Positions 11,879 through 52,815 of a stretch of 64,000 nt of DNA are shown here, piece after piece. Position numbers and translations under genes: made by a program. Source of the DNA: an uncultured cyanobacterium (GTDB lineage Bacteria > Cyanobacteriota > Cyanobacteriia > CAKZMO01). Position 1 is the first letter of the stretch. Every line of letters begins with the position of its first letter. The stretch is from assembly GCA_963719515.1 (NCBI GenBank), contig CAVRCJ010000001.1, positions 310,942-374,941 on the forward strand. Direction: 5' to 3'. The notes below the pieces were generated by a model. That model saw only the letters and a list, made by a program, of their open reading frames with translations. It did no database searches and was not told where the DNA came from.

Positions 11879-12208
11879 GGTGGTGTTGAACAGGGGCAAA
11901 GAACGGTATGCGTAAAAATGGCTCAGTTGACGTTGCGAATCAAGGTGAACGCGGCCCAAAGACGCGGGTTGGGTGCTGCTCTATGGTGGTGAGCATGGTC
12001 TGCCGTAAGGCTTGGGCTTTGTCCACAGGGTTGTCGGGGTCTTGTCACAGGCAGTAGAACTGCGGTTGCCTACGGAACTTCGAGCTTTCAGCCGCTTGAA
12101 CTGTCACAAGCAACCGCGCCAACGCAATAGATCTCAACTAATTTTCCTTAGAAGAGGATACCGCAGCCACCCGACCCCTGGCGTCAGTGTTACAGAATTG
12201 TGAACAGC

Positions 12209-15504: not shown

Positions 15505-15549
15505 CACAGCTCTCCTAAATCTGAAAAGGTTCCTCTCTCTTGCTGATGC

Positions 15550-15576
15550 ATACTTCTCGGCAAGGCAGACATATGG
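15550..15576 (-). promoter_or_regulatory. Island motif copy CCATATGT-N11-AGAAGTAT
   Basis: Upstream of the minus-strand small TPR gene. Confidence 0.6.
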
Positions 15577-15628
15577 AAATCGTGTTGGCGCTTGCAGGCG
15601 TTTTAGCCTTCAGGCAAAGTTTCTGCTT

Positions 15629-17803: not shown

Positions 17804-17884
17804 GGTGTATCAAGAATTAATTGCGGTTGCTGTCAGCGATCGCGGGTGGTTGGGCCGCGTTGAGCTGAAGCTGGCCTATGATTT

Positions 17885-17911
17885 CCATACCTGATTCTAA
17901 GGGAGAGGTAT
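17885..17911 (+). promoter_or_regulatory. Island motif copy CCATACCT-N11-AGAGGTAT
   Basis: Upstream of the TPR-CHAT start at 17968. Confidence 0.65.
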
Positions 17912-18790
17912 AGGCTATTGATGGCCCTTTGCGCCTAACGCCGTTCCACGAATAGCTAACGAGGGTTATGAAAATGCGATCGCCTAATGGAATGAAGTGC
18001 TGGTCTGTGGCGGCTTGGATGTTGCCGGGGCTGCTGATGGTGGCGGCTCCGGTCGTGGGGATGGCGGAGGTAAGGGTGCAGGGGGTGGAGACGGACCGTA
18101 AGGCGGAGGCGGACCGGCTGCTTCAGCAGGGCATTGAGGAGTTTAACGGCAGTCAGTTTCGTGAGGCGCTGCAGTTTTGGGAGCGATCGCTAGAGATTTA
18201 TCGGGGGATAGGCGATCGCCGCGGGGAAGGCGCTGCCCTGGGCAACTTGGGCCTTGCCTACAGCAACCTAGGGCAATACCAACAGGCGATCGCCCTCTAT
18301 GAGCAACACCTTGAAATCGCCCGAGAGATAGGCGATCGCCGCGGGGAAGGCGCTGCCCTGGGCAACTTGGGCAATGCCTACCGCAACCTAGGGCAATACC
18401 AAGAGGCGATCGCGCTCTATGAACAGTCCCTTGAGATAGCCCGAGAGCTCGGCAACCGGCTCGCTGCAGGTAATGCCCTCGGCAACTTGGGTCTCGCTTA
18501 TGACAACCTAGGGCAATACCAACAGGCGCTCGCATTCCATGAGCAGTCCCTTGAAATAGCCCGAGAGATTGGCGACCGCCGTGGGGAAGGCAATGCTCTG
18601 GGAAGCTTGGGCAATGCCTTCCTCCAACTAGGGCAATATCAACAAGCGATCACGCTCTATGAGCAGTACCTTGAAATTTTTCAAGAGATTGGTGACCGCC
18701 GAGGGGAAGGGGTCGCTCTCGGTAACTTGGGTCTCATTTATGACAGCCTAGGGCAATATCAACAGGCGATTGCATCCTATCAGCAGTCCC

Positions 18791-20106: not shown

Positions 20107-22395
20107 CAGCAGTCCCTTAAAATAGCCCGAGAGATTGGTGACCGCCGCGGGGAAGGTAATGCCCTGGGTAACTTGGGCAGTACCCTTGGCAACCTAGGAC
20201 AATACAAAGAGGCGATCGCACTCTATGAGCAACAGCTTGAAATTTTTCAAGAGATAGGTGACCGCCAAGGGGAAGGGGTTACCTTTGGCAACTTGGGCAT
20301 TGCTTACAGTAACCTAGGGCAATATCAACAAGCGATCGCGCTCCTTGAGCAGCGCCTTGAGATAGCCCGAGAGATTGGCGACCGCCAAGGGGAAGGCAAT
20401 GCCATCGGCAGCTTGGGTAACGCTTACCTCCGACTAGGACAATACCAACAGGGGATCGCATTTCATAAGCAATACCTTGAGATAGCCCGAGAGATTGGCG
20501 ACCGCCAAGGGGAAGGCAACGCCCTCGGCAACTTAGGCAATGCTTACCTTCAGGTAGGGCAATACCAACAGGCCATCGCTTCTTATCAGCAGGCTCTAGC
20601 CATCCACCAAGACATCGGCGATCGCGCTGCCGTAGGGCTTGGGTTTAGCAACATCGGCAACCTCTTCGCCACGCAAGACCAACCTCAACTCGCCATCCTC
20701 TTCCTCAAACAGTCCGTCAACGTCCGCGAATCTATACGCAACGACATCCGCCAGCTCCCCACCGACCAACAGCAATCCTTTACCGACACCGTCGCGGACA
20801 CCTACCGCCAGCTAGCCGACCTCCTCCTCCAAGAGAACCGAATCCTAGAAGCCCAGCGCGTCCTCGACCTCCTCAAAGTCCAAGAGCTAGGCGACTACCT
20901 CGGCACCGTCCGCAGCAGCCCCAACACCCAAACCGGCATCGACCTCACCACACCCGAACGCCCCGTCCGCGATCGCCAGCAGGCCATCACCAACCGAGCG
21001 ATCGCCGTGGGCCAGCAAATCGCCCAGCTGCGGCAGATAGACGAAGGGCGATCGCCCCAGCAGCAGGCGCAGCTCATTGAACTCGAAGCCGAACAGGACG
21101 ACATCCGCGCCGAATTCTTCGCCTTTATCGACGGGCCAGAGGTGCAGGCCCTGGTTGACGCTCTCAGCCGCGACCAGGCTAAGCAAGATCTAGTGGCCAA
21201 CCTAGAGGAGCTAGTCAACCTGCAAAACAACCTCAAAGACCTGAACCAAAACGCGGTCCTCATCTATCCCCTAGTCCTAGAAGATCGCCTAGAGCTAGTG
21301 CTGGTCACTCCCTTCAGCGAACCCACCCGCTACCCCATCACCGTCCCTCGGGAAGAGCTGAACCAGGCCATCGTCCAGTTTCGCCAAGCTTTAGAAGATC
21401 CCACCAGCAACCCGCTGCCCGCCGCCCAGCAGCTCTACGACTGGCTGATTGCTCCCATGGCCGATGACCTAGCCGCCATTGACGCTCAAACCCTGCTCTA
21501 CGCCCCCGATAGCATCCTGCGCTACATCCCCCTCGCCGCCCTGCACAACGGCGACAGATGGCTAGCAGAAGATTACCGCGTCAACCACATCACCGCCGCC
21601 AGCCTGGGCAACCTCAACCTGCGCCCCGACTCAGAACTCGACATCCTAGCCGCCGCCTTCAGCGACGGGTTCCACAGCGTTGCCGTGGGAGAGCGCAATC
21701 TCGACTTTGACGGCCTCCCCTTCGCCGGGCAGGAGGTAGAGAACTTGGCCAAGGCCTTCCCCGGCACCACAACTCTGGTCAACGACGACTTCAGCCTTGA
21801 TGATACTGTCCTGCTCATGGATGATCACACCGTGGTCCACCTGGCCACCCACGCCGCCTTTGTCCAGGGCACCCCCCAAGATTCCTTCATCCTATTCGGC
21901 AACGGCGATCGCATTACCCTGGAGGAAATGAAGCAGTGGCGGGGCCGCTTCAACGCTATCGACCTAATTGTGCTCAGCGCCTGTGAAACAGGGCTAGGAG
22001 ACGATGGCTCCGGCACCGGGGAAGAGATTCTCGGCTTTGGCTACCTGATGCAGCAGGCGGGGGCCGCAGCGGCGATCGCCTCTCTATGGCAAGTGAGCGA
22101 CGGCGGCACCCAAGCGCTGATGAACGCCTTTTACACCGCGCTGAGCAACGGCTACAGCAAAGCAGAGGCCCTGCAGCGATCGCAGCGGGCGTTGATTGAG
22201 GGTGACCTCTCGGTTGTGGGGGAACAGCGCGGCACCATTGAGCTGATCAGCACGGCAACAGGGGAGCCGATTAGCGCTGATGACCTCAGCCATCCATACT
22301 ACTGGGCACCGTTCATCCTCATCGGCAACGGGCTGTAGGATGTGCAGGATACCCATGCCCTACTAAAGAGCAGTCACTAGCGCAGATCCTCTGGG

Positions 22396-23148
22396 TCAAT
22401 TTGGGCAAAGTACCTCGGGCGCTTCACTGATCAGAGTTACCAGCTCCGCTGAAGGATTCTCCACCAAAAGGACTTCCCTCCAAAAATCGGACCAAAAGCC
22501 TTTAGCCGCGAAGTAGTCAGCGCGTCGTCTGGCCTTTTCTTCAGAGGAGCCCCCCGCCGCCGCTAGGGCGTCTAGCTCCTCGTTAATTTGCGCCTGCTGG
22601 GCTGACGTCAGGGTCACAAACGGCACCTCGACTGGAGGCTGGTCGGTCTCGGGTGAGTAAATTAGCCACTGGTATATCTGACCTGGAGCGATGGAGGGGG
22701 TGCCATTGTAGATGGCGTGACCCTGCTCACCCGTGGTCTGCCACAACGGTGACTGCGCCCCTTGCAACCGCAGCTCAACGGTCTCTACATCGCCTTTCCA
22801 CACCAAGGTTGGCCCCGATATCGTCGTCTGGGTCACTTCCAGGTTGGCAACGGATGTCAATGGCGCAATCAGGCAAAGGTCAGTCGCGATGGCGCTAGGA
22901 GAATCGCCTCTGCTGCCGCCGGGATCAGTCGGGACCGGTGGCTCAATCCTGCGCTCTTGCAAACTGCCTCGGCTTCCCCCCCCTTCAGCAGGCACCGGGG
23001 GATCGCTGCTAAAAATATCGCTCCAAGAGATCCAAGCCGTTGAGGTGAACTGGGCGATCGCCTCTGTTGCGGGCAGCGCTAGCCCTAACGTGAGACTAGC
23101 GACAAGGGACAGGCGAACGGTAGCGCGAGCTGAGCAGTAGAGCATCAT
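22396..23148 (-). CDS. Secreted DUF928-like protein
   Basis: Signal peptide, two PPVP...GGSRG repeats, CLIAP, PTLVW, PGQIYQW, YFAAKGFWSD. The start overlaps the upstream TGA (ATGA coupling). Confidence 0.7.
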   Translation of the reverse strand: MMLYCSARATVRLSLVASLTLGLALPATEAIAQFTSTAWISWSDIFSSDPPVPAEGGGSRGSLQERRIEPPVPTDPGGSRGDSPSAIATDLCLIAPLTSVANLEVTQTTISGPTLVWKGDVETVELRLQGAQSPLWQTTGEQGHAIYNGTPSIAPGQIYQWLIYSPETDQPPVEVPFVTLTSAQQAQINEELDALAAAGGSSEEKARRRADYFAAKGFWSDFWREVLLVENPSAELVTLISEAPEVLCPN

Positions 23149-25531
23149 GACTTTTTCCTGGTGAGTGCTGGAAAGCTGTAAAAGACTATCGTCAGAACCG
23201 GAAGCACAACGGGCAGCAAAACTGCCGTAGAAACGAAGAGTTGAAAGCTGATGCCGGTGCAAAGAGCGGTGCCTGCCGCAAAGATGAGCCACCGCGATCG
23301 CCGACTAAGCTGTTCTAGAGAGGATGATCCCGGCTTAGAAAACCGCTGGCGCTGAACATATACCGTCAACGCTTTACCGATAAGAGCCATCAACCCAATC
23401 ATCCAGAGATTGGGAACCGAGACAACGTACCGTTGATCAAAGTAATGGCTGAGCTGGTAAGCGTGGATCTCACCGCCCGTGAGAATTTTGCGATTGTCTG
23501 ATGAGGTCAGCTGTCGCCGCCAGTAGGCAACAGCGGCGGGCGTCGGTTGACTATCTTGGTTTGCCTTGTGAATTCCAGCCTCGCGATACCCTCCTGCGGC
23601 AATCATGACAACCTGATGCTCAAGGGATTGCAGTCGTTCAGGGGTTTCGTTGCTAGAATCAGCTGCAAGCAGCTCCCACGCCGAAATCCGCTCATAGACT
23701 TGGGGGGGGGAACTGAGAAATCAACTATTGGATGAAGCCACATCTGCCGAAGTCGATAGCCAATCTCCGAAATCAGCATGGAGCGAGGGGGGGCTAGTTG
23801 AGAGACATGACGCGGGTGATAGCGTGTCAGCTCATAGCTAAAGGGCTGAGGTTCAGTCGGGTCCGCTGACAGCAATTTGAGGTAGTAGGTGTTTCCCAAG
23901 CGGCGGTAGCGGATATCGCCGTGGATGCTTTCCTCAAACTGGGCCAGTTCTGGCAGAGCAAATAGCCAAGCATCATTGAGCGATGGAGTCGCGGCAAAAA
24001 CAACGTCAACATCTCGATCAGCAGCGGCCTGAAGCGATAGGGCCAGTTGCGCATCGTTATCTTGGGGGTAGTCCAAAAGGTAATCCAATCCAATCACTTG
24101 GGCATTGAGTGACACTAGCTGATCCACTATCTGCGCCAAATAGCCGCGATCCATCACCTTCGGATCGCTGATGTTTGCCTTCGCGATCGAGGTGTCATCG
24201 ATTTGCACCAGCAGCACGGGCGGCACTTGGTCCGCTGTGAACTGCTGAGTTGCGTGGCGATAAAAGGCCTGCGCCACCATCCGCCGCTCCAATAGCCAGC
24301 TCTGCACCGGCAACTGCCAGCTCAGCGCCGCCAATAGCCCCACCGCGATCGCCTCCCGACGGCTAGGTATCAGTTTCTGCAGCCGCTGCCGCCAGCCGTA
24401 GGGCTGAAGCTGAAATAGCGGGGCGCTGGGGCGGCAAAAGAGGGAGGGGACCAAATCTGCAGAAGGATAGGTCAGTTCGGCCTTACTTTTGAGAAACTCG
24501 GTGGCGGCAATCAGAGCGGTGTGGACATCCGCGTAGGCAGCGAGGCTCTGTAAGAACTGCGGCAAAAAGAGCTGGGCCACCCGGTTGTGGATCGGTTCGC
24601 GCATCACCGCCACTTGGTTCAGCCCCAGGCCAATGAGGGCGGCGGCGATATCCATGCCGTTGCAGGAATTGAACAGAGCAAACTGCAGCCCCCGCTGCTG
24701 GGCTTTCTCCAGGTGGGGCTGCAGTTCACTAAGGGCAATAGCCGTATTGGGCGCAATCGCCAGCTCTCCCCCTAGCCCTGGCTTCTCGTTGCTGTGCCCC
24801 GCAAAAAAGAGGATGTCCCACCCCTGCTCGGCGGCGATCGCCGCGACGATATCGCGCTTGAGGGTCTCGATGTCAGCCCCCGGCTGCCAGCCCACAAAGC
24901 GGATCTCAGCCAGAGAGGCCAGCGACTGTACCGCCTTGCGGTCTTCCGCAAAATTGAGGCCGGTATCATCCCCCATAATCGCCAAAATGCGAAGACGACG
25001 GCGTGAAGACTGGGGCACAGCCGCCGCAGCGCGAATATTGTCTGGGGTACGGGCAATGCGGATGCTGCCCGTGGCGGCAAACTCGCGACCAATCTCCCAC
25101 GCCTCCCACGGCAGGCGGGCGATGTCATCTGTCGAGCAAGTCAGGAAAATATTGACGGCGGCATCGGCGCGGCTTGCTTTCGCAATCTCAGAGCGGATAT
25201 CGTGCAGCTCTGGCGATCGCAGCCACTGGTGGAAGTCGTGCAGCAGCCGCGACTTTGCCTCGACAAGCCGCATCCGCCGGTCATTGGGTGTGGCAATCAC
25301 GCTACCGCCGCCAACGGCCTTGCCGCGCAGCCCATCCCCAGCCTCTGGTGGGTCTAGAGAAATCGGCAGCGTTTGATAAAAGCTGAGGTAAGTTCGCTGC
25401 CAATCGCGATAGCGCTGCATCAGCACGTCTGGAAAGGTGACCGGGACGCTCAACTGCCGTTCTCCGTCCCACCTTAAGGTAAACAGGCAGTCTTGCCCCA
25501 CGTGCCGTACCAAAAGTCGAAAGTTAGTCAT
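23145..25531 (-). pseudogene. CHAT-TM-CHASE2-TM transmembrane protease-receptor, frameshifted at a C9 tract
   Basis: LPWEAWE, FFAGHS, FNSCNG (CHAT dyad); hydrophobic segment; VLLVQIDD...DRGYLAQIVDQL...VIGLDYLLD (CHASE2). The C-terminal part (MIAAGGY...GGEIHAY plus TM helices) lies in another frame past G9 at 23702-23710. Confidence 0.85.
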
Positions 25532-26843
25532 GACGAATATAGGTAAAAGGCGGTAAGGTGATTTCCGCGCCGTTGGTTAAATTAACCGTGACCTGAAACT
25601 GCTCGCGCCACTCGCCAACGACCTGGGAGAACAAGTAGGCGTCAGGCCCTGTTTCCGATAGGGTCTGCTGGTCTAGCACCTGTATATCGTCGCTGATCCT
25701 GAGGGTAATGCCAGCGGGTAGCTCTCGGTTGGGCTGTGGCCCGAGCAGCAGCAGTAGGCACCAAGCCTGGTCCGATGCGGTGGAGAGATCCCAGGTGATG
25801 GCGTAGAGGCGCACCGACACCGTTTCCCAGGTGAGGTCGCGGTAGGCGGCGCGGGCCTGGGAGGGAATCGGGGTACCGCTTTGGGATATCGTGGTCACGA
25901 TGTCCTCGAACTGCTCCACGGGCGATCGCGCATACCGCATTGAGGTTGCCTCCTGGAGCCGCGATAGGGGCGGCAGCAATCGCCAGTCTTGGTCTTGAGG
26001 AATTTGTACTGAGTCTTGGAACCACTGCCTGACGTTGACGACAGCCTGCGCCACTGGGCCGGGTGATGGACTAGGCAATAGCGATCGCCCTAGCTCAGGC
26101 TGGGTGAGGACTACCGCTGCCTGCTCCCAGGTGAGCAGCTTCCAAATAGGCACCTGAGATTGAAGTCGACCTGCGAGAGTGGATAGGGTCTCTTGCACCT
26201 GAGCTACAGAGGGCAGCGTAGGGGGCGCGATCGCCACTGAGCCTGACGCCACTGAGCCTGACGCCAGAGCTTCGGGCGGCAGGCAGCGCAGGTAAAGCAG
26301 CAAGGCATCGGGGTCAAGATCAAACCAGGTTCGGGGGATGGTGTAAGTCCAGTCGCGATGAGCGGTCAATTCTTCTGGCAGCGCCGCGATATGGGCGCGC
26401 ATCTGGTCATAGCGCAGGCATCCCTGCACATCGACCTGTCCGACTTCCTCCCGCACGTCGACTAGCACCAATAGCTGTGGCACAAACGCGGCTAGCTCTA
26501 AAGCAGCTCGGGGAATGGTAACGGCCTCGTCGTCCAGGCTCCCAGCGGGAATGAGACAGAGGCGAAAGCCGTTAACCTCTAGGCTGCACACGGCGCTCAG
26601 CAGCCCCGCCACCTCAGGCCGCGTCACCGAACAGGCGGGGTTTTCTACGGCGATGCCCCGCTCAGATAGCCACTGCTGAAATCCCACCCAGGCGATCGCA
26701 TTGAGATGAGCTTGCCAGCCCTCGGCGGGACGGAGGGTTTCAGTTTGTGCAACCGCTCGCTCTAGATCTTCTTCTGACAAAACAATTAGGTTGGGAGACT
26801 GTGTCTCGGCTTCGAGAGCCAGCGAATCTTCAGTAAGTGTCAT
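25524..26843 (-). CDS. DUF1822-like protein (candidate anti-sigma/CHAT substrate)
   Basis: WQAHLNAIA..F..WL, GFRLCLIP, VTIPRAALEL..FVPQ, VNVRQW, LPAGITLRISD, YLFSQVVGEWREQFQV, TLPPF; overlaps the receptor start. Confidence 0.75.
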   Translation of the reverse strand: MTLTEDSLALEAETQSPNLIVLSEEDLERAVAQTETLRPAEGWQAHLNAIAWVGFQQWLSERGIAVENPACSVTRPEVAGLLSAVCSLEVNGFRLCLIPAGSLDDEAVTIPRAALELAAFVPQLLVLVDVREEVGQVDVQGCLRYDQMRAHIAALPEELTAHRDWTYTIPRTWFDLDPDALLLYLRCLPPEALASGSVASGSVAIAPPTLPSVAQVQETLSTLAGRLQSQVPIWKLLTWEQAAVVLTQPELGRSLLPSPSPGPVAQAVVNVRQWFQDSVQIPQDQDWRLLPPLSRLQEATSMRYARSPVEQFEDIVTTISQSGTPIPSQARAAYRDLTWETVSVRLYAITWDLSTASDQAWCLLLLLGPQPNRELPAGITLRISDDIQVLDQQTLSETGPDAYLFSQVVGEWREQFQVTVNLTNGAEITLPPFTYIRHD

Positions 26844-26862
26844 GATATTTAATCTCCTAATC

Positions 26863-28227
26863 TTAAATTCTGGTGTCTAAATATCGGCACAGGTGGCGGG
26901 CAAATCGACTTTTCAGGGGACCGTTGCGGCGAACGCTAGTTTCCACTTCGGTTTCGTGAATCAGGTCTGTAATCTCTTCGTCTAGCGCCTGAGCGAGGCG
27001 CTGGTCGAGATCCTGTAGATTAGCGGCATTGGTGAAGGTTTTTGCCAGCAGCAGGATGCGATCGCGCAGCAGCTGCAGCATCTGGTGCCGCACATCGGTC
27101 CGCAGGGGCTTTAGCTTCAGCAAAGCGGTCACCTGATCTTGACGGATATAGCCAATTTTGGGGGCAATGTCTTTCATGGCTTCTCCCAGGCAGTGAAACA
27201 GATGCAGCCCCTTGAGAAACCGCTGGGGGCGATCGCCCTTCCGCCGTCCTAGAAAGCTGACCCGCTGCTCAACGACGGTTTTTAGGGCGTCGTCTAGGCT
27301 AGAGAGAAACTGCTGCCGGTATTCGCCCAGAAAGACGTCGGCTTGGACGTCATCTGAGCTGGCATCGGTGGCGGAGAGACTATTTAGCGTTTTGGCTTGG
27401 TCGGGGTTGTCTAAAGAATCGGTGGGCAGCACCTTGCTGCGGTTGTGGATGCGCAGGGCGCGAAGCTGCTGGGCCAGGCTCTGCAGCTGCTGCATGACCT
27501 GGTTAGCCGATAGCGACAGCGAATACTCGTCGGCCAGATATGCGGCAATGCGCTGCAGCTGGTCAGTGCTTGGGGGGGCGCACCGTCCTACCCGCTGCTT
27601 TTGCTTCTGCCGCCAGCGATCGCTCCGGTAGACGGCATTATAGCCTTCTAGGAGGGCGCTAGCCTGGGACATTTCGACGGCGCTCAGCAGATGAAACATC
27701 CCTGACGCCTCAAGCTGAGAGGGTTTGGTATCGTTTAATATAGCCCAATCGCTGACCAAATAAACGCCGTGCTCTAGGAGGACGGCATTAACCTCGCTGT
27801 GCTGGCGAACAAGCCGAATAGTCCAGGTGCTGAGGCTGCTCTGCTGTGGGTCGAAACTGTCGAGAACTTTGCTGGCGAATGACTGGTACGACGATTGGGG
27901 GCGATCGCGGATTAGGGAAGTGTCGTCCAGCACCAGATGCAGCAGGTCGTAGCGGCTGACGCCGTGGCGCTTGCCAAAGCCCGCTTCTAGGTCTTGGCAA
28001 GCGTAGACAATCTGGTGAGAGATGAAGCATCGCAAACAGGCTTCTGCAGCTTCCGCCTGATGGGCTTTCAGCCACCGCTGGATGTCGCGGTGGGGCAGCT
28101 CCTGGCGCGATATGCGATCGCTGCCCTCTCGCTCAAGCCAGGTGCGGGTGCTGTCAATGGTTCTACGCTGTGGGGTTCCAGCGGCGGTGAGATGCAGAAA
28201 GGTCCAGTATTGAGAGATGTCATCCAT
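26863..28227 (-). CDS. Divergent sigma-70-like DNA-binding protein
   Basis: CLRCFISH, VLDSFDPQQSSLSTWTIRLVRQH (region-2-like), DSLDNP, C-terminal HTH-like GEAMKDIAPKIGYIRQDQVTALLK. AGAGGA RBS before ATG at 28227. Confidence 0.6.
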   Translation of the reverse strand: MDDISQYWTFLHLTAAGTPQRRTIDSTRTWLEREGSDRISRQELPHRDIQRWLKAHQAEAAEACLRCFISHQIVYACQDLEAGFGKRHGVSRYDLLHLVLDDTSLIRDRPQSSYQSFASKVLDSFDPQQSSLSTWTIRLVRQHSEVNAVLLEHGVYLVSDWAILNDTKPSQLEASGMFHLLSAVEMSQASALLEGYNAVYRSDRWRQKQKQRVGRCAPPSTDQLQRIAAYLADEYSLSLSANQVMQQLQSLAQQLRALRIHNRSKVLPTDSLDNPDQAKTLNSLSATDASSDDVQADVFLGEYRQQFLSSLDDALKTVVEQRVSFLGRRKGDRPQRFLKGLHLFHCLGEAMKDIAPKIGYIRQDQVTALLKLKPLRTDVRHQMLQLLRDRILLLAKTFTNAANLQDLDQRLAQALDEEITDLIHETEVETSVRRNGPLKSRFARHLCRYLDTRI

Positions 28228-28301
28228 TATCAGTCCTCTAGGTCGTTGAGCGGCAGGGCACGACTCCGCCACTAGACTACAGAATTCTTCACTAATGGGA
28301 A

Positions 28302-28328
28302 ATAGCTCTGAGCATTTTGAACCTATGG
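28302..28328 (-). promoter_or_regulatory. Island motif copy CCATAGGT-N11-AGAGCTAT
   Basis: Upstream of the sigma-like operon. Confidence 0.65.
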
Positions 28329-28414
28329 AAGTTTTGAGGTGCTGCCTGAGGTTCTGAATTCTGAATGGGTTGGGACGCAGTTTGATGCGCCCATACTACT
28401 TGTGGATTGTGGAA

Positions 28415-29863
28415 TTAAAGGCCGTTGCCGATGAGGATAAAGGGTGCCCAGTAGTAGGGGTGGGCTAAGGGATTTCGCTCAAGGCTTGCGCCTTCTATGA
28501 CAGTGCCTCTCAGGCTTGGAGAGACATCTTCGCGCTTGATCATCGAAAGCTGCGCCTGCCGCAGGGCCGCGCCGTAGGAACTGCCCTCCTGCAGCGCTCG
28601 ATAAAACGCTTCCATAAACGCAGGCGTGCTGCCGTCGCTGATGGCCCATAGAGAGGCGATCGCCGCTCTGGCACCAGCCTGCTGCGCTAAATAGCCAAAG
28701 CCCAAAATTTCTTCGCCGTTGTCAAAACCGCCTATCCCCGTTTCACAGGCGCTCAGCACGACTAAATCCACGTTTTGCAGGGACCAGTTACGCATATCGG
28801 CGAGGGTGACGCGATCGCCATTGCCCATCAAGATAAAGGAGTCCTGCGGGGAGCCGGGGACAAAGACGGAGTTAGAAGCTAGGTGCAGGACGGTGTAGTT
28901 GTTCATTTGAGACCGGAGCGCCGCCGTCGTGAACGCCTCGTTGAGCAACACCGTCGTTTCAGGCACGATCGCAGCGATCGCCTCCACTTCAGCGCCGGTT
29001 CCAGGCAGGCCCGTCAGCGAAACTGGGCGATCGCCAAGTTCAATGTCGTATGTGCCTTCCGTGTGGGCTGCGGCTAAGACCCTCAGAGGTGCCTGGGGCG
29101 ATCGCTCTAAATCGGTCAGGGTTGCCGCTGTGATACGGTTGACGATAAAGCGCTCTGTGAGCCAGCTTTCCCCATCGTGGAGTGCGGCAAGGGGAATATA
29201 GCGCAGCGCGCCGTCTGGGGCGTAGAGCAGCGCTTCGGTGCCCGCAGCGGTGAGGGCTACCTCCATGGGCTGGATGAGCCACTGGTAGAGCTGCTCAGCG
29301 ACGGGGCGCGGGTCGCTGCTGGGGTCGCCCAAGCTTTGGCGGAACGCTGCGACAGCTTGGCTGACCTCAGCGCGAGAAACCGGTACGGTGTAGGTGAGCG
29401 GCGACGCGTCGGGGGTGAGCAGAACAAGCTCGATGCGGTCTTCTAGCAGCAGGGGGTAGAAGATCGCCGCTGGCCGCTCTAAGCGCTGTAAGTTATCTTG
29501 CAGGGCGGCGAGATCTTCGAGGGGAAGGGTCGCCTGTCGCTGCCGGGACGCTTCAAGCTGCTGGACTTCTGGGCTGTCGAGGAACTCACGAAACTGATGA
29601 ACGAACTGCCGCTGGAGAATGCGTAGGTCTTCGAGCCGCTGCTGTTGCTCAGGAGTGCGCTCGTCTAGTGGAATGCGCTCTAAGTGACGGCGATCGCGGC
29701 CCGCTTCGATGGCGGTGGTGTACTGCTCAGTTAACTGTGACTCAGCCCCCCGAAGTTCGATGCCCTGTTCTGTTTGTGCAGATTCGGCAGGGGCGATCGC
29801 GGTGGGGTTGAGCAGGGCGATCGCGCTTAGGAGGGCGGTGAGGGTGGGTTTGATAGATTTCAT
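28415..29863 (-). CDS. Secreted stand-alone CHAT protein with catalytic His replaced by Asn
   Basis: Signal peptide from ATG 29863 (MKSIKPTLTALL), no TPRs; HLASNS instead of HLATH(A/G); LSACETG retained. Confidence 0.85.
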   Translation of the reverse strand: MKSIKPTLTALLSAIALLNPTAIAPAESAQTEQGIELRGAESQLTEQYTTAIEAGRDRRHLERIPLDERTPEQQQRLEDLRILQRQFVHQFREFLDSPEVQQLEASRQRQATLPLEDLAALQDNLQRLERPAAIFYPLLLEDRIELVLLTPDASPLTYTVPVSRAEVSQAVAAFRQSLGDPSSDPRPVAEQLYQWLIQPMEVALTAAGTEALLYAPDGALRYIPLAALHDGESWLTERFIVNRITAATLTDLERSPQAPLRVLAAAHTEGTYDIELGDRPVSLTGLPGTGAEVEAIAAIVPETTVLLNEAFTTAALRSQMNNYTVLHLASNSVFVPGSPQDSFILMGNGDRVTLADMRNWSLQNVDLVVLSACETGIGGFDNGEEILGFGYLAQQAGARAAIASLWAISDGSTPAFMEAFYRALQEGSSYGAALRQAQLSMIKREDVSPSLRGTVIEGASLERNPLAHPYYWAPFILIGNGL

Positions 29864-29969: not shown

Positions 29970-32900
29970 TTAAAGGCCGTTGCCGATGAGGATGAAGGGT
30001 GCCCAGTAGTGGGGATGGCTGAGGCCGGTCGAGCTAGCTCTTGCGCCTGTGGGGACGATGGTGGCGGGTCCGCCGCCTTGCGGAGCTGCGATCGCATCTG
30101 CGGTTCCATCATCTTCGCTGGAGGTGGCTTCGCCCTGGGCAATCAGGGTTTGCTGGGCGAGCTGTAGGGCTCTAGACTTAGATTCACCCTGCTGCAGCGC
30201 ATCGTAAAAGGCGGTCATCAGCACTTGGGTACCCTGATCGTTTACCTGCCACAGCGAAGCCAACGTTGCCCTGGCCCCAGCCCGCTGAAACTGATAGCCC
30301 AGCCCCAAAATCTCTTCCCCGTTGCCAAAGCCGCCCAGCCCCGTTTCGCAGGCGCTCAGCACGACTAAATCGACGTTTTGCAGGGACCAGTCGCGCACGT
30401 CAGCTAGGGTAGGGCGATCGCCGTTGCCAAACAGTATGAAGGAGTCTTCGGGAACGCCGGGGACGAAGGCGGCGTGGGTAGCAAAGTGGATGATGTCGTG
30501 CTCGTTGAGGCGCGATCGCACTGCAGCGAGGCTAAAGTCTTGGTCGAGGAAGGGGGTGATGTTGGGCAGGCTGGCGATTAGGGTTTCGACTTCTATTCCG
30601 GCAAAGGGCAAACCCTGAAAGTCGACGCTGCGCTGCCCCACCTGCACAGGGTAGCTGAGAGTCTCGTCGGCGAAGGCTCCGGCCAGGACGCTGGGCGATT
30701 TGGCGGGCTGGGCGGCAAGATCGGTGAGCGATCGCGCGGTGATGTTGTTGACGGCGTAGCGCTGGGCCAGCCAGGTCTCGCCGTCGTGGAGGGCCGCGAG
30801 GGGAACGTAGCGCAGCTGTCCGTCGGGGGCGTAGATGATGGTGTCGATGTCGAGGTTGGCGAGGTCGTCTTCTAAGGGTTCAACCAGCCACTGGTAGAGC
30901 TGATGGGCGGGGGTGATGACGTCGCTATTGGGGTTTTCGAGAGCCTGCCGGAAGGCGAGGATGGCGCGGTTGAGGTCTTCTCGGGTGACGTTCTCGACGG
31001 TGCGCCGCAGGGGGGGAGAGTCGGGGGTGGTGAGCACGAGTTCGAGCCGGTCGTCTAGGATGAGCGGGTAGAGCAGGACGGCGTTGAGCTGGCCCAGGTC
31101 GTTCCGCAGGGCGGCGATATCGGCGGGGTTGAGGGTTTGCTGGCGGGTGGTGGTGCTGAGCTGGCTGATGAGAGTAAGGATTTCGTCGCTGTCGATGAAG
31201 TTGTTGAACTGGCGGGTCAGCTCTTGCTCTAGGTCAACGAGTTCGCGGATGCGGGCTTGCTGAGCGGGGGTGCGATCGCTCTCTGGGGTTTGGCGGAGCT
31301 GGGTGAGTTCTTGGCCGAGTTCGATGGCTTGCTGCTGGCGGGCGTTGAAGCGCTCCAGGATTTCTTGCTCGGGTTGCCAGTATTCGACGCCGCTGGCGGT
31401 GGTGGCGTTGCCGCGAACACCGCGCAGGTAGTCATCGAGTTCTTGGACTTTGAGCAGGTCTAAGACTTGCTGTGCTTCTAGGATGCGGTTTTGTTGGAGG
31501 AGGAGGTCGGCGAGTTTGCGGTAGGTGCTTTCAATAGTGTCGGTGAAGGACTGCTGTTGCTCGGTGGGTAAGTCACGCAAGCCGTCGCGGATGTCTTCGC
31601 GAACATTGACGGACTGCTTGAGAAAGAGGATGGCGAGCTGGGGATGGTTCTGGTCGGTAAGGAGGTTGCCGATATTGCTGAGCCAGGTTCCTTGAGCAGC
31701 GCGATCGCCAATATCTTGGTGAATGGCTAGAGCTTGCTGGTAGGAAGCGATCGCCTGTTGGTATTGCCCCAGGTTGCGGTAAGCGAGGCCCAAATTGCCC
31801 AGGGCGGCACCTTCCCCGCGCCTGTCCCCTATCTCTTGGGCTATCTCAAGGTGCTGCTCATAGAAGGCGATCGCCTGTTGGTATTGCCCCAGGTTGAGGT
31901 AAGCGATGCCCAAGCCGCCCAGGGCATTGCCTTCCCCGCGCCGGTCCCCTATCTCTCGGACAATGTCAAGCTGCTGCTCATAGAACGCGATCGCCTGTTG
32001 GTATTGCCCCAGGTTGTCGTAAGCGATGCCTAAGTTGCCCAGGGCATTGCCTTCCCCGCGCCGGTCCCCTATCTCTCGGGCTATCTCAAGTCGTTGCTCA
32101 TAGAGTGCGATCGCCTGCTGATATTGCCCTAGATTGTCGTAAGCGCTGCCCAAGTTGCCCAGGGCATTGCCTTCCCCGCGCCGGTCCCCTATCTCTCGGA
32201 CAATGTCAAGCTGCTGCTCATAGAAGGCGATCGCCTCTTGGTATTGCCCTAGGTTGCGGTAGGCACTGCCCAAGTTGCCGAGGGCAACGCCTTCCCCTTG
32301 TCGGTCGCCAATCTCTCGGGCGATTTCAAGGTGCTGCTCATAGAAGGCGATCGCCTGTTGGTATCGCCCTAGCCTGAGGTAAGTAGTGCCCAAGTTACCG
32401 AGGGCAACGCCTTCCCCTTGTCGGTCGCCAATCTCTCGGGCGATTTCAAGGTGCTGCTCATAGAAGGCGATCGCCTCTTGGTATTGCCCTAGGTTGCTGT
32501 AGGCACTGCCCAAGTTGCCCAGGGCATTGCCTTCCCCGCGCCGGTCGCCAATCTCTCGGGCGATTTCAAGGTGCTGCTCATAGAAGGCGATCGCCTCTTG
32601 GTATTGCCCTAGGTTGCGGTAGGCACTGCCCAAGTTGCCCAGGGCATTGCCTTCCCCGCGCCGGTCCCCTATCTCTCGGGCGATTTCAAGTCTTTGCTCA
32701 TAGAGTGCGATCGCCTCTTGGTATTGCCCTAGGTTGCGGTAGGCACTGCCCAAGTTGCCCAGGGCATTGCCTTCCCCGCGCCGGTTGCCTATCTCTCGGA
32801 CAATGTCAAGGGATTGCTCATAGAATGCGATCGCCTGTTGGTATTGCCCCAGGTTGTTGTATGTAAGGCCCAAATTGCCCAGGGCATTGCCTTCCCCTTG

Positions 32901-33488
32901 CCGGTCCCCTATCTTCCGATAAATCTCTAACGCCTGCTCCCACGACTGCAGCGCCTCGCGAAACTGACTCACATTGAACTGCTCAATCCCCTCCTGGAAC
33001 AGCCGATCGGCCTCTGCCTTGCGATCATCCTCAACTGGTGACTCCGCCTCACTGCCCTGAGATTGTCCTTCTGTGGCCACCTCCCGCACCATCAGCCGAT
33101 ACCGCCCCCGATTCTCCGCATCAGCCGCATTAGCAATCACCATGTAGGTGCCATCCTCCGGCAGCGTCACCACCAGGCCCGCATTCGTCGTCGTTTCGTC
33201 CAAATTGTTGTTCTGAGCGATCGCCTCCCCCTGCGGGTCTAGCAGCAGCAGGTAGGTGTCAAACGCCTCGCTCTCCATCACAATCTGCAAGGTCTGGCCC
33301 GCTCGCCCTTCCACAGGATAGGCATCATAGAGGCTGTCATCGTCTGGAACAACGCGATCGCCCTCCTCCAGCACCCCTTCCACCTGCAAAATCGGCTCCG
33401 CCTCCTGCGCCAGCACCCCGCCCGCCACCATCCCCTCTACCACAAGCGCCACTGCCGCTATGCCAATCCACGTGATGAGGAAACGCAT
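29970..33488 (-). CDS. Secreted PPC-TPR-CHAT protease
   Basis: Signal peptide; PPC-like GRAGQTLQIVMESEAFDTYLLLLD...GTYMV; ~11 40-aa TPRs; HFATHA, LSACETG. Confidence 0.9.
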   Translation of the reverse strand: MRFLITWIGIAAVALVVEGMVAGGVLAQEAEPILQVEGVLEEGDRVVPDDDSLYDAYPVEGRAGQTLQIVMESEAFDTYLLLLDPQGEAIAQNNNLDETTTNAGLVVTLPEDGTYMVIANAADAENRGRYRLMVREVATEGQSQGSEAESPVEDDRKAEADRLFQEGIEQFNVSQFREALQSWEQALEIYRKIGDRQGEGNALGNLGLTYNNLGQYQQAIAFYEQSLDIVREIGNRRGEGNALGNLGSAYRNLGQYQEAIALYEQRLEIAREIGDRRGEGNALGNLGSAYRNLGQYQEAIAFYEQHLEIAREIGDRRGEGNALGNLGSAYSNLGQYQEAIAFYEQHLEIAREIGDRQGEGVALGNLGTTYLRLGRYQQAIAFYEQHLEIAREIGDRQGEGVALGNLGSAYRNLGQYQEAIAFYEQQLDIVREIGDRRGEGNALGNLGSAYDNLGQYQQAIALYEQRLEIAREIGDRRGEGNALGNLGIAYDNLGQYQQAIAFYEQQLDIVREIGDRRGEGNALGGLGIAYLNLGQYQQAIAFYEQHLEIAQEIGDRRGEGAALGNLGLAYRNLGQYQQAIASYQQALAIHQDIGDRAAQGTWLSNIGNLLTDQNHPQLAILFLKQSVNVREDIRDGLRDLPTEQQQSFTDTIESTYRKLADLLLQQNRILEAQQVLDLLKVQELDDYLRGVRGNATTASGVEYWQPEQEILERFNARQQQAIELGQELTQLRQTPESDRTPAQQARIRELVDLEQELTRQFNNFIDSDEILTLISQLSTTTRQQTLNPADIAALRNDLGQLNAVLLYPLILDDRLELVLTTPDSPPLRRTVENVTREDLNRAILAFRQALENPNSDVITPAHQLYQWLVEPLEDDLANLDIDTIIYAPDGQLRYVPLAALHDGETWLAQRYAVNNITARSLTDLAAQPAKSPSVLAGAFADETLSYPVQVGQRSVDFQGLPFAGIEVETLIASLPNITPFLDQDFSLAAVRSRLNEHDIIHFATHAAFVPGVPEDSFILFGNGDRPTLADVRDWSLQNVDLVVLSACETGLGGFGNGEEILGLGYQFQRAGARATLASLWQVNDQGTQVLMTAFYDALQQGESKSRALQLAQQTLIAQGEATSSEDDGTADAIAAPQGGGPATIVPTGARASSTGLSHPHYWAPFILIGNGL
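31735..32900 (-). repeat. Tandem ~120-bp TPR-coding repeats (~10 units)
   Basis: Near-identical sequence recurs every 120 nt. Confidence 0.92.
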
Positions 33489-33521
33489 CAAATTCTCTCC
33501 GCCAAATGACTCCAGTAGTCT

Positions 33522-33548
33522 ATACCGCTAGGCCGAATAGAGGTATGG
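33522..33548 (-). promoter_or_regulatory. Island motif copy CCATACCT-N11-AGCGGTAT
   Basis: Upstream of the PPC-TPR-CHAT gene. Confidence 0.65.
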
Positions 33549-33651
33549 AAATTAACAGTGTTTGATGGTGGCCCTCAGACCCCTGGAATCTAGCAGCTTT
33601 TCTCCAACACCACCCGTATTTTGTAGAGATTCCAGCGGTCCACTTCAAGCG

Positions 33652-33678
33652 CCATACCCTTTGACACCTCAGAGCTAC
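33652..33678 (+). promoter_or_regulatory. Island motif copy CCATACCC-N11-AGAGCTAC
   Basis: Upstream of the subtilase; divergent from the previous copy. Confidence 0.65.
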
Positions 33679-33715: not shown

Positions 33716-35857
33716 ATGAAGCGACCTACGGGAACCCCGCTACTAGGCGCGATCGCCCTATCCACTGGCCTGCTCACCCTGCTCGCCGCCCACCGCCAGC
33801 CCGCCACCGCCCAGTTCCAGCCCGCCCCCCAGGACTCCTATTCCTTCTTCGGCCAGCAGATTCCGCTGACGACCCAGTCCGACGTCGTTGCCGTCGCCTT
33901 TGCGCCACAGTCCGGCACGCGGGGCGTTGGGCAGCCGGCCTACGCTCAGCTTGAGGCCGACCTTCGGGGAGAGCCTACAGGAACGCGGGGCGGTCGCTCC
34001 CCCTCCCCCTTGCGCTTCGACGTGTGGGTCAGTCCCTTAGGCGATCGCTACGCCTTGGTCACCACTGAAGACGGGGAAACCGTCCGTCAGGCGATCGCCC
34101 AGCGTCCCTACGTCGAGGCAACTCTGCCCGTGTTGACGGTGGGCAGTGGGGAGGACGCTGCGCAAGTGGTGCTACCCAACGAGATTTTGCTCAGCCTGGA
34201 GCCGGATTTGTCGGGCAGCGAGCGGCAGGCGCTGCTCAATCGCTACGGCCTAGAGGTGGTGAGGCCCCTACAGTTTGCCCGCGATCGCTACCTCGTGCGA
34301 TCGCGGCGCGAGGTGGGGCTAGCGGTGCTGGAGGTGGCCAATCGCCTCCACGGCGCTGTGGGAGTTGAGTCCGCCACGCCCAACTTCATTCAGTCGGTGC
34401 CCTACCGGGTGCAGGCGCAGGATATCGAAGACGCGACGTTGAGCGATCGCCCCAACGCCGCCGCCCAGCTCCAGCAGCTTCTGGGCTCATTCCCCAAAAT
34501 CGACACCGCTTTCCCCAGCAGCCTGTCTCCCCTCGCCTGGCACCTCGACAGTACGCCTCAGCGCGGCAGACTGCAGCCCCGCACCGACATCCGCGCCACG
34601 GAAGCCTGGGGCGAGGGCAACGGCGGCGAGGGCGTAGTGGTAGCCGTTATCGACAGCCTTATCCAGTGGGACCACCCCGACCTAGCGCAAAACCTCTACT
34701 CCACCCAAGATCACCCCGACCGCTACCCCGGCGAAGAGTACGGCTGGGATTTCACCAGCGAGGCCAACTGCCCAAACGCCCAGCCCGACTGCATTCCCGG
34801 CGACCCCGATACCCGCATCAGCGCCGCCGAGGTGGACCTGCTACGCCCCCACCTGCAAAACACCTTCCAGCTTTCAGACGCCGCCCTGCTGGAGACCTAC
34901 AGCGGTTTGGCAGGGCGGATCAAGGAGCGCTATCCCAGCCTCTCCAGCGCCCGCACCGCTAGCCTCATCCGCAACCTCATTCGTGGTGATATCTCGTCCG
35001 AGTTCCACGGCACCTGGTCCGCCGGGGTAGTGGCTGCCCATCCCCAGGGCGGGGAGGGGGCGATTGGGGTTGCACCTATGGCCAAGATTTTGCCGGTGCG
35101 GGTATTTGGCATTGAGGGGGAAATCACCACAGCGCGGCTGATTGAAGCGGTGGGCTATGCCGCCGACCGAGGCGCGGATGTAATCAACATGAGCTTGGGT
35201 AGCGCGGTACCCGACCAGGCGTTTGTTGACCAGATTTTCGCCGTTTTAGACGAGAACCCCGAGCTTGTGATTGTCGCTTCGGCGGGCAACGACAGCGTCG
35301 ACGGCGTGGGCTTTCCCGCCGCGACGCCGGGGGTGCTCTCGGTGGGGGCGACCAATCTGGAGGGCCAGCGCACTTACTACAGCAGCTACGGCGGGCGGCT
35401 CGACGTGGTGGCCCCCGGTGGGGAGACAAATCTGTTCCAGCAGGGCGGCATTCTCACCACGGGGGGCACTTGGGTCGATGGGTTTTGGAGCGCTTTAGAG
35501 GCCCCGCCCTACGGCTGGGGTGCGGCCCTAGACCCGTTAGGTAAGTACGTCCAGGTTCAGGGCACCTCCTTCTCGGCTCCGGCGGTTTCCGGGGTGGTGG
35601 CGCTGATGAAGGGGGTAAACCCGTCGCTGGAGCGCGATCGCCTGCTGGCGGTTTTGCGGGAGACGGCGAGCTATGAGGGCCTGACGCTCACCCGCGCGGA
35701 CCTAAACCGCTACCGACTGCAGCGGGAGGTAGGTCTGACGCTGATGGAGGACCGGGTATCGGGCCTATTTCCGTTCCCGGAGCCGATTTCGCCAGAGGAG
35801 TATTTCTTTGGTGCGGGGTTGGTGGACGCGGAAGCGGCAGTGGAGGCGGTGCGGTAG
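33716..35857 (+). CDS. Secreted S8 subtilisin-like serine protease
   Basis: Signal peptide, long prodomain, VAVIDS, FHGT, SAGN, GTSFSAP. Confidence 0.92.
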   Translation: MKRPTGTPLLGAIALSTGLLTLLAAHRQPATAQFQPAPQDSYSFFGQQIPLTTQSDVVAVAFAPQSGTRGVGQPAYAQLEADLRGEPTGTRGGRSPSPLRFDVWVSPLGDRYALVTTEDGETVRQAIAQRPYVEATLPVLTVGSGEDAAQVVLPNEILLSLEPDLSGSERQALLNRYGLEVVRPLQFARDRYLVRSRREVGLAVLEVANRLHGAVGVESATPNFIQSVPYRVQAQDIEDATLSDRPNAAAQLQQLLGSFPKIDTAFPSSLSPLAWHLDSTPQRGRLQPRTDIRATEAWGEGNGGEGVVVAVIDSLIQWDHPDLAQNLYSTQDHPDRYPGEEYGWDFTSEANCPNAQPDCIPGDPDTRISAAEVDLLRPHLQNTFQLSDAALLETYSGLAGRIKERYPSLSSARTASLIRNLIRGDISSEFHGTWSAGVVAAHPQGGEGAIGVAPMAKILPVRVFGIEGEITTARLIEAVGYAADRGADVINMSLGSAVPDQAFVDQIFAVLDENPELVIVASAGNDSVDGVGFPAATPGVLSVGATNLEGQRTYYSSYGGRLDVVAPGGETNLFQQGGILTTGGTWVDGFWSALEAPPYGWGAALDPLGKYVQVQGTSFSAPAVSGVVALMKGVNPSLERDRLLAVLRETASYEGLTLTRADLNRYRLQREVGLTLMEDRVSGLFPFPEPISPEEYFFGAGLVDAEAAVEAVR

Positions 35858-46218: not shown

Positions 46219-46245
46219 GTACCTCTAGCAGCGCAAGGGGTATGG
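46219..46245 (-). promoter_or_regulatory. Island motif copy CCATACCC-N11-AGAGGTAC
   Basis: Upstream of the peroxidase gene. Confidence 0.65.
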
Positions 46246-46276
46246 ATTTTCTTTTGCGAAAGGGCGAGGTGATGCG

Positions 46277-52798: not shown

Positions 52799-52815
52799 AT
52801 CAATTGCGCTATTGG

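Follow-up and report, generated by a model that had tools for sequence, protein, structure and literature searches.

We analyzed a 64-kb stretch of DNA from an uncultured cyanobacterium (GenBank assembly GCA_963719515.1, contig CAVRCJ010000001.1, positions 310,942 to 374,941; the whole stretch of 64,000 nucleotides is called the window here), in which four open reading frames (ORFs) on the minus strand span positions 22396-28272 and encode, in this order, a sigma-like protein (gene A), a DUF1822 protein (gene B), a receptor made of a CHAT protease domain, a transmembrane (TM) part and a CHASE2 sensor domain (gene C), and a secreted DUF928-like protein (gene D). An original prediction, made from the letters alone, had described four co-oriented genes with a 19-bp gap and then overlapping stop/start junctions, and had proposed that they form a proteolytic signalling switch across the membrane. 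The ORF coordinates agree with this layout and confirm the four-gene operon: a gap of 19 bp (26844-26862) separates A from B, the last 8 bp of B are shared with C, and the stop codon of C and the start codon of D are shared as ATGA (Table 1). Gene B scored 122.6 bits against PF08852, for which the cut-off is 25. Gene D scored 22.4 bits against PF06051 (DUF928), and because this is under the 26-bit cut-off, the label DUF928-like that the original prediction had given it was kept. When the profile of the gene D family was aligned by hhalign with the canonical DUF928 of the same genome, the result was a 3% probability over 22 columns. In the 29 loci scanned at this position, an ORF of 216-328 amino acids lies directly after the receptor; 15 of these ORFs match DUF928 at E 0.01 or better, and 4 of the 29 are above the cut-off. 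The NCBIfam scan gave no name for any of the four operon proteins.

The identity of gene A was approached through its family, which is large and cyanobacterial. Among 8000 candidates scored, 358 proteins were related to gene A at E 0.001 or better, and all 120 among the matches listed carry the source name "hypothetical protein". When 42 proteins of this family were compared with 34 canonical sigma factors using hhalign, the two profiles aligned with a probability of 97.3% (E 2e-11, 260 columns), from the end of region 2 through the helix-turn-helix of region 4. The canonical family matched the sigma70-ECF model TIGR02937 in all 34 members and also matched region 4 of SigF/FliA in the PDB; all 34 members gave, in addition, a weak match below the cut-off to NF041236, "type III-E CRISPR-associated RpoE-like sigma factor" (best E 2e-8). 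The AlphaFold model of gene A had a pLDDT of 84.7, with a low-confidence linker of 21 residues (269-289) between an insertion and region 4. In VIA-align searches with this model, 47 of the 50 matches listed were, by title, initiation complexes of RNA polymerase (RNAP) or sigma fragments, and the other three were integrative models named RPSB, RPSD and SIGA; the best Z was 7.5. The RpoS region 1.2-2 fragment 5h6x_B superposed on gene A over 92 of 96 residues (Z 7.0, root mean square deviation (rmsd) 3.4), and 1ku2_A over 98 residues (Z 5.6, rmsd 3.6), both with Z below 8, and the whole-chain alignments to sigma factors were colinear over model residues 14-390. Sigma factors were also the best rows of a Foldseek search with the model, where the matches were weak (best E 1.1e-2), and the clusters named nearest to gene A in a protein atlas were cyanobacterial sigma-70 families. 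By profile comparison, the region-4 helix-turn-helix of gene A is homologous to that of known sigma factors, and we take gene A to be a probable, very divergent sigma factor of the extracytoplasmic function (ECF) type, in which a large insertion separates region 2 from region 4. The original prediction that the 26863 protein is sigma-like is thus borne out by profile comparison and fold searches, although no family model sees a sigma factor in it. The endoglucanase matches that appeared in the PDB profile search with gene A were short and were dismissed as chance.

Relatives of gene A were found at 453 genomic loci, and the neighbourhoods were read in the 80 best loci. A DUF1822 gene follows gene A in 77 of the 80, a synteny that is far beyond chance; of the three loci without it, one ends with its contig, one carries a deletion and one lacks the gene. 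A synteny survey had been named with the original prediction as a way to check it, and the A-B order held. The receptor was looked for in the 62 loci whose sequence continues for 3 kb or more beyond B: it lay within 500 nt in 34, further away in 8, and was absent in 20. Because it is absent in 20 of 62 loci, we regard the A-B pair as the core of the system and the receptor as a frequent but not obligatory part.

The same genome holds a paralogous operon on another contig (C3, locus L084, 1-12295), in which the same four genes stand in the same order, sigma, DUF1822, CHAT-CHASE2 and DUF928, together with TpsA and a divergent TpsB. The sigma factor there has both Sigma70_r2 and Sigma70_r4, the receptor is intact (834 amino acids), DUF928 is matched at E 3.4e-39, TpsA (1403 amino acids) has a P-domain, and TpsB is of the ShlB/FhaC type. 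The two receptors are 27% identical (E 1e-32), and the two sigma factors are related at the profile level. The sigma, DUF1822 and DUF928 proteins of the paralogous cluster are all above their family cut-offs, whereas not all of those in the window are, and the paralogous cluster is joined to a two-partner secretion pair, whereas the window copy lies among TPR-CHAT, subtilase and caspase genes. A Calothrix genome carries 11 DUF1822 genes above the cut-off, and just upstream of 8 of them stands a sigma or sigma-like gene: three canonical-type sigmas, one further sigma variant of 510 amino acids, two A-type sigmas, one small ECF sigma above cut-off and one weak ECF-like ORF. The ORFs upstream of the remaining three match sigma models faintly or not at all. 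A miniature variant was seen in the same Calothrix genome (G001, locus L104, 6255-9718), which consists of a 179-amino-acid protein, a 201-amino-acid protein that matches the C-terminal part of DUF1822 alone, and a third protein of 766 amino acids with the N-terminal region, the CHAT motifs AGHS and NSC, and a multi-TM C-terminus in place of CHASE2.

The complex of the sigma factor with DUF1822 was modelled, as had been suggested with the original prediction. The model reached an ipSAE of 0.78 (0.71, 0.78 and 0.79 in the runs) against 0.00 for the best of three controls; this score is the confidence of a model and not a measurement, and it was obtained with our own family alignments. In the calibration of the tool, 116 of 157 solved complexes attained this mark, as did 2 of 215 mismatched pairs. 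The runs had at least 47% of their contacts in common, and the pLDDT of the partner was at least 76. The contacts predicted on the sigma factor fall at 151-171 (with the invariant W161, A162, L164, N165, D166 and T167), 197-216 and 255-267, and the family-invariant contact residues also include Y200, R204, R256 and R259; those on DUF1822 fall at 6-46 (with the invariant W43), 101-109, 131-136 (E132, E133) and 162-171. The confident contacts lie on the most conserved residues of both families, and the predicted interface covers conserved residues of the family-specific insertion that follows region 2 of the sigma factor. The modelling supports the view that DUF1822 would bind the gene A sigma.

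The model of DUF1822 alone (pLDDT 85.0) is of alpha/beta type without TPR repeats and has an Ig-like sandwich as its C-terminal domain. The N-terminal domain resembles PD-(D/E)xK nucleases (D212, Z 7.1, rmsd 3.7, 129 residues; I-Ssp6803I, Z 6.4) and the C-terminal domain resembles Ig-like sandwiches at Z 6-7, all of these fold matches being middling and under the caution line of the tool. The first Foldseek row for the C-terminal domain was the ClpX-associated factor PDIP38 (E 7.1e-4). The DUF1822 subfamily that is paired with A-type sigmas has a loop, M-R-S-P-x-E-E-F, before helix 308-321: among 37 aligned DUF1822 proteins, the R was kept in 26, the S in 27 and the P in 28, and in most of the others MRS is displaced by a few columns. 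In the window DUF1822 the loop reads MRYAR306-SPVEQFE and was modelled with low confidence. From its resemblance to the site that the CHAT protease HetF cuts in PatU3, R306 in this MR-SP loop may be the CHAT cut site, which we offer as a lead.

Gene C matched PF12770 (CHAT) at residues 100-344 (E 1.8e-10) and PF05226 (CHASE2) from residue 399 (E 7e-12; 45.9 bits, cut-off 26.3), and no kinase or cyclase domain was found in its Pfam scan. The columns of the CHAT motifs AGHS (H246) and NSC (C290) were invariant across 16 aligned receptors. In the hydropathy profile, CHAT is followed by a weak hydrophobic segment (395-413) and the C-terminus contains stronger ones, so that CHASE2 is flanked by such segments. 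Pfam, alignment and hydropathy therefore agree with the receptor as first described, with an intact His/Cys CHAT dyad before the first TM segment, CHASE2 after it, and no kinase or cyclase output. CHAT is preceded by a conserved region of about 95 residues (W44, Y48, Y52, R69 and D84 conserved), which fits an EACC2 domain but does not prove one.

The frameshift in the receptor interrupts CHASE2. Among relatives with both receptor halves in one frame, 38 of 39 have an uninterrupted ORF of 796-947 amino acids, and the remaining one runs off its contig. The C9 run is crossed by a single metagenome contig of 187 nt and depth 2.6, which has 6 other differences from the window and is one base longer at the run. 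This is thin evidence that an in-frame form of the receptor exists in a near-identical strain; one contig is too little to decide between an error in the assembly on the one hand and recent mutation or phase variation on the other. Given the frameshift in this assembly, this strain may have a switch that is either broken or subject to phase variation.

The 320 nt upstream of gene A were compared in 75 loci. TGCATA was present in 59 of them and T[GC]CATA in 63, and relative to the T[GC]CATA anchor a second box, nAGAnnTA, stood at offset 19 in 48 loci and at offset 20 in a further 4; the remaining 16 offsets examined gave 4 matches in total, and shuffled sequences gave 0.017 per offset. The motif consists of two boxes at a fixed spacing with a spacer that is not conserved. 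Its family consensus is aaacTGCATAAG-N11-CAGAnnTA and its core form TGCATAAG-N11-CAGAnnTA, and the first box is TCCATA in the clade of the window. A position weight matrix (PWM) was built without the window's own site and run over the window's own genome (5.28 Mb), where it gave 18 hits at a score of 12 or more and 7 at 15 or more, 3 of the 7 being inside the 64 kb of the window; at 15 or more, the counts in three shuffled sequences of 1 Mb were 0, 1 and 0. The PWM scores are partly circular because the matrix was made from seed-picked sites, and the independent parts of the evidence are the spacing test and the intergenic placement of the sites. In the window there were 7 sites at a PWM score of 7 or more, against 1.0 in 50 shuffles, and all of them are intergenic; 6 of the 7 lie 30-115 nt upstream of a co-oriented gene (sigma, TPR-CHAT, S8 subtilase, two TPR genes and a haem peroxidase-RTX gene). 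Of the proteins encoded behind these sites, three have a signal-peptide-like N-terminus: the subtilase, the TPR-CHAT and one of the two TPR proteins.

In the 80 loci (1.08 Mb), 113 PWM hits reached 14 or more, of which about 62 were the sigmas' own promoters. Behind the extra copies of the motif in the other loci were 26 ORFs: 11 TPR, 4 TPR-CHAT, 3 S8, 2 M48, 1 PrsW-TPR, 1 HTH, 1 YbjN and 3 unnamed, a count from which we excluded sites that precede B or C or have no ORF of 80 amino acids behind them, as well as two small ORFs and one cut ORF. The motif stands before the sigma gene and before nearby genes for secreted TPR-CHAT, subtilase and TPR proteins, which makes it possible to predict a regulon. 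The claim that the sigma factor turns on a secreted protease set thus fits the sharing of the motif by the sigma gene and these secreted genes, whereas the part of the claim in which the gene A sigma reads the motif is itself what we infer. The recognition helix of region 4 is QDQV[AT][YA]LLKL in the TCCATA loci (the window, L001 and L004; 3/3) and Q[YF].[VI][ST]RL.KL in 40 of 40 TGCATA loci in which the helix was found by pattern, a comparison that left out 18 rows without a match to the helix pattern. Such covariation between box and helix is what would be expected if the gene A sigma reads the motif; because the TCCATA loci form one clade, it counts as one event. A scan for consensus sigma-70 promoters over 22200-28450, including the region upstream of A, found 0 against 2.1 expected, and terminator-like hits in the same interval numbered 9 against 5.2 expected, which is unconvincing.

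Two side observations concern the motif elsewhere. Its second-best match in the genome (25.2; C3:596657-596689, locus L136) lies 202 nt upstream of a gene for a 449-amino-acid sigma-70 factor with regions 1.2, 2, 3 and 4, which hints at a possible sigma cascade. The motif-like sites at 59470-59502 in the window (11.1) and at C3:729386 (12.6) are nearly identical, and the window copy has no co-oriented gene behind it; they may be a repeated element and not a promoter.

Table 1. Operon genes, promoter-like motif copies and predicted targets, with positions in the window (PWM, position weight matrix score)
Feature	Position	Strand	Remarks
Gene A, sigma-like	26863-28272	-	Open back to GTG 28272; start in relatives is ATG 28227, giving 26863..28227, 454 aa
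Gene B, DUF1822 protein	25524..26843	-	439 aa; Pfam PF08852, E 2.7e-35
Gene C, receptor	23145..25531	-	Two ORFs here, 23603-25531 and 23145-23606
Gene D, DUF928-like	22396..23148	-	250 aa; signal-peptide-like hydrophobic N-terminus
C9 homopolymer, change of receptor frame	23702..23710	-	Ten C would keep the frame
Bipartite promoter-like motif, sigma gene	28302..28334	-	cTTCCATAGG-N11-CAGAGCTA; PWM 28.8, best in the 5.28-Mb genome
Motif copy	33522..33554	-	PWM 15.3; intergenic; 31 nt upstream of TPR-CHAT gene 29970-33491
Motif copy, weaker	33646..33678	+	PWM 8.6; 38 nt upstream of subtilase gene 33716-35857
Motif copy	15550..15582	-	PWM 15.7; 43 nt upstream of TPR gene 15088-15507
Motif copy, weak	17879..17911	+	PWM 7.6; 57 nt upstream of 17968-18795
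Motif copy, weak	46219..46251	-	PWM 10.5; 115 nt upstream of haem peroxidase-RTX gene 43234-46104
Predicted target, TPR-CHAT	29970..33491	-	1173 aa; signal-peptide-like N-terminus; from Pfam and the motif upstream
Predicted target, secreted S8 subtilase	33716..35857	+	713 aa; Peptidase_S8 E 8e-49; signal-peptide-like N-terminus

Taken together, these data are best explained by a protease-gated sigma factor switch, to which we assign a probability of about 0.5. In this switch, gene A would encode a very divergent ECF-type sigma factor, and DUF1822 would bind it and keep it inactive. The receptor would carry a cytoplasmic, caspase-like CHAT protease governed by the extracytoplasmic CHASE2 domain, and the secreted product of gene D would act on or with CHASE2. 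On a signal, CHAT would cut DUF1822, most plausibly after the conserved Arg of MR-SP (R306), and the freed sigma factor would read its private promoter, TGCATAAG-N11-CAGAnnTA (with TCCATA as the first box in the clade of the window), and switch on its own operon together with the neighbouring secreted TPR-CHAT proteases, S8 subtilases and TPR proteins. The kinship with sigma factors, the conserved synteny, the predicted sigma:DUF1822 interface and the distribution of the promoter motif come directly from the computation, and onto them we infer the inhibition, the cleavage and the signal input. The operon thus offers a testable chain of sensor, protease, inhibitor, sigma factor, promoter and target genes, with concrete predictions at each point: the interface residues, the cut site at R306, C290 as the catalytic residue, and the promoter boxes with the region-4 helix that matches them.

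A number of results weigh against this reading, in addition to the limits given above for the Foldseek E value, the complex score, the seeded matrix and the comparison of helix and box. Gene A had no usable Pfam or NCBIfam match and no sigma model (Sigma70_r2/r4, TIGR02937) recognized it, no Sigma70 family was within the 25 commonest Pfam matches of the 42 A-family members (61 families matched), and a PDB profile search with gene A gave no sigma; all of its VIA-align Z values were below 8, a range that the tool calls common for helical proteins. The A-B pair can work without a receptor nearby. The fold search with DUF1822 found no known anti-sigma architecture, the only match of this kind being of a generic sandwich sort, with the sensor domain of RsgI4 (Z 5.5). 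The MRSP loop is restricted to this DUF1822 subfamily: of 11 other DUF1822 proteins checked it was present in 1, and that protein, too, is paired with an A-type sigma. The cleavage of DUF1822 and the sensing of the DUF928-like protein by CHASE2 are presumed steps.

It is a real possibility, although not the one we favour, that the window holds a decaying, non-functional copy, in which the frameshift would be real, the sigma factor and DUF1822 would be uncoupled from the signal, and the island around them would be eroding. The receptor frame is broken at the C9 run, against one ORF in 38 of 39 relatives, but homopolymer length errors are frequent in assemblies, and in a near-identical strain the run is of in-frame length, albeit on a single contig of depth 2.6. 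Two genes near the operon are interrupted by insertion sequence (IS) elements. A TPR-CHAT gene beside the operon is split by an IS4 element, and a further IS is located behind the TPR gene 15088-15507. The intact paralogous operon elsewhere in the genome could make the window copy dispensable; against this, the other genes of the operon are intact and conserved residues are kept in both halves of the receptor.

We consider it unlikely that the protease of the switch has another target, such that CHAT cuts itself or cuts the sigma linker at 269-289, and that DUF1822 is an adaptor that tethers the sigma factor to the receptor. Autopeptidase activation has been proposed for EACC2-caspase proteins in the relevant passages of PMC8195603, but HetF, the closest experimental case, cuts the sigma's partner PatU3 according to the account in PMC9457339, and the conserved Arg-Ser-Pro loop of DUF1822 resembles the mapped HetF site. 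The sigma model does have its low-confidence linker between the insertion and region 4, and an Ig-like sandwich such as the C-terminal domain of DUF1822, with PDIP38 as its first Foldseek row, is of the kind that adaptors use; the predicted interface, on the other hand, lies on the conserved insertion after region 2, as an inhibitor might bind. That gene A is instead a helix-turn-helix transcription factor working with the housekeeping holoenzyme, with the motif as its operator, seems to us improbable: gene A matches no sigma family model, its strongest sequence similarity to sigma factors is in the region-4 helix-turn-helix and the profile alignment begins only at the end of region 2, but its N-terminal domain can be superposed on the fragment of RpoS region 1.2-2 over 92 of 96 residues, the whole-chain sigma alignments are colinear, the motif has two boxes at fixed spacing around an unconserved spacer, no sigma-70-type promoter-like site was found in 22200-28450, and a recognizable ECF-type sigma factor occupies the equivalent position of the paralogous operon.

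Filamentous cyanobacteria have many caspase-like CHAT proteins of unknown role, and the surroundings of the operon fit an island that has been damaged by IS elements and carries genes for caspase-like and other peptidases. A TPR-CHAT gene (window 17968-22338) is seemingly split by an IS4-family transposase gene at 18910-20064. By BLASTP, its head (17968-18795, signal peptide and TPR) is 78% identical to residues 153-386 of the intact TPR-CHAT protein encoded at 29970-33491, and its tail (20173-22338) is 58% identical to residues 447-1173 of the same protein. Behind the motif-bearing TPR gene 15088-15507, and like it on the minus strand, follow an IS transposase gene (13619-14986), a TPR gene (12209-13066), a gene for a trypsin-like peptidase (10976-11959) and one for a caspase C14-DUF4384 protein (8660-10942). 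A XisH/XisI pair lies between TPR genes at 17064-17803. The intervals 46001-48000 and 52001-54000 have a G+C content of 0.44, compared with about 0.57 elsewhere, which suggests a foreign origin; they flank TPR-CHAT, LRR-CHAT and LRR-pentapeptide genes.

Systems of several kinds release a sigma factor by proteolysis. In those of the RseA/DegS/RseP type, an envelope signal releases an ECF sigma factor through the cutting of a membrane-bound anti-sigma; in the window, the candidate inhibitor is instead soluble, the sensor and the protease, a cysteine peptidase of clan CD, are fused in one protein, and the operon encodes no site-1 or site-2 protease. In type III-E CRISPR, the CHAT protease Csx29 (TPR-caspase) is switched on by an RNA-guided complex, not by a membrane sensor, and cuts Csx30, the partner that holds the ECF-like CASP-sigma. 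The logic by which a CHAT protease cuts the partner of a sigma factor resembles that proposed for the window, where the sensor is bound to the membrane. No Cas or CRISPR-associated family was found in a Pfam scan of 40 ORF translations from the window (38 called ORFs, two of which were scanned twice, with another start or in part).

A computational precedent for the whole arrangement was found in the work of Kaur, Iyer, Burroughs and Aravind (eLife 2021, PMC8195603), where the relevant passages describe proteins in which a constant EACC2 domain and a caspase domain are combined with C-termini that vary, TM/CHASE2 being among them. Most of the neighbourhoods of these EACC2-caspase proteins also encode an ECF sigma factor and DUF1822, and it was proposed there that a stimulus induces autopeptidase activation, followed by sigma-driven transcription. 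The window matches these systems, as those passages present them, in its CHAT domain on the N-terminal side, its TM/CHASE2 C-terminus and its DUF1822 and ECF-type sigma neighbours, the last recognized here by profile-profile and fold comparison and by no family model; the sigma factor of the window belongs to a subfamily that is invisible to family models, unlike those of the EACC2 systems. DUF1822 is a TPR protein in that account, whereas the window model is alpha/beta with an Ig-like C-terminal domain. DUF928 occurs 0 times in PMC8195603, the passages of its section 9 name no promoter or regulon, whereas the window system has a predicted motif, and the description is purely computational. 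Literature searches (DUF1822, DUF928, CHASE2 with CHAT or caspase/sigma, EACC2) found no experimental study of this module. The original prediction, which knew of no experimental description of the module, needs correcting in one respect: the module had already been catalogued, though by computation alone. The window operon is a real, conserved and divergent member of this known module, and what is new here is the motif, promoter-like and of fixed spacing, and the regulon predicted from it for the gene A sigma.

The closest experimental counterpart comes from Anabaena sp. PCC 7120. As described in the relevant part of PMC9457339, the CHAT protease HetF cuts PatU3 between R117 and S118, in the run Y116-R117-S118-P119-E120, and cleaves this partner of the sigma factor, not HetF itself or HetR. 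According to the corresponding part of PMC13342950, HetZ is an ECF-like sigma factor with three insertions that is inhibited by PatU3, so that the analogy with HetF-PatU3 drawn in the original prediction now reaches an experimentally shown sigma factor. Searches for these proteins were also made. Profiles of the A and canonical-sigma families gave no further relative of about 400 amino acids in the heterocystous Calothrix genome, a 398-amino-acid candidate for HetZ from a TIGR02937 scan of that genome was rejected on inspection, and a DUF1822 scan of it at E 10 identified no PatU3. The single hit of a degenerate DNA pattern for the PatU3 cleavage peptide was an unrelated membrane protein and was discarded, the PDB searches gave no HetZ or PatU3 entry, and the supplements of PMC13342950 mention neither DUF1822 nor CHASE2.

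As far as these accounts go, the HetF-PatU3-sigma-HetZ system and the window module share a membrane-anchored CHAT protease, an ECF-like sigma factor with large insertions and a private bipartite promoter. PatU3 is a cytoplasmic inhibitor that is cut after the Arg of R-S-P-E, and the window DUF1822 has a similar Arg-Ser-Pro loop. In the published descriptions HetF carries periplasmic TPRs, whereas the window receptor carries CHASE2; the genes of HetF, PatU3 and HetZ do not form one operon, whereas those of the window do; and the promoter of sigma-HetZ is TCCGGA / TGnA, which differs from TGCATAAG / CAGAnnTA in the window. By analogy, we regard HetF-PatU3-sigma-HetZ as a functional analogue of the window module. 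More tentatively, and in our estimate short of an even chance, the A/DUF1822/CHAT-CHASE2 system could be a widespread sister of the HetZ-PatU-HetF switch, which would respond, through CHASE2 and the secreted DUF928-like protein, to an envelope or cell-cell cue, free a sigma factor with a private promoter by a cut at MR-SP, and so control an arsenal of secreted TPR-CHAT, subtilase and M48 proteases. If the switch exists as proposed, the predicted promoter would let its regulon be read directly from genomes, the caspase-based extracytoplasmic response of filamentous cyanobacteria would have a transcriptional trigger, and the logic of HetF, PatU3 and sigma-HetZ in heterocysts would be one case of a general design of cyanobacterial signalling.

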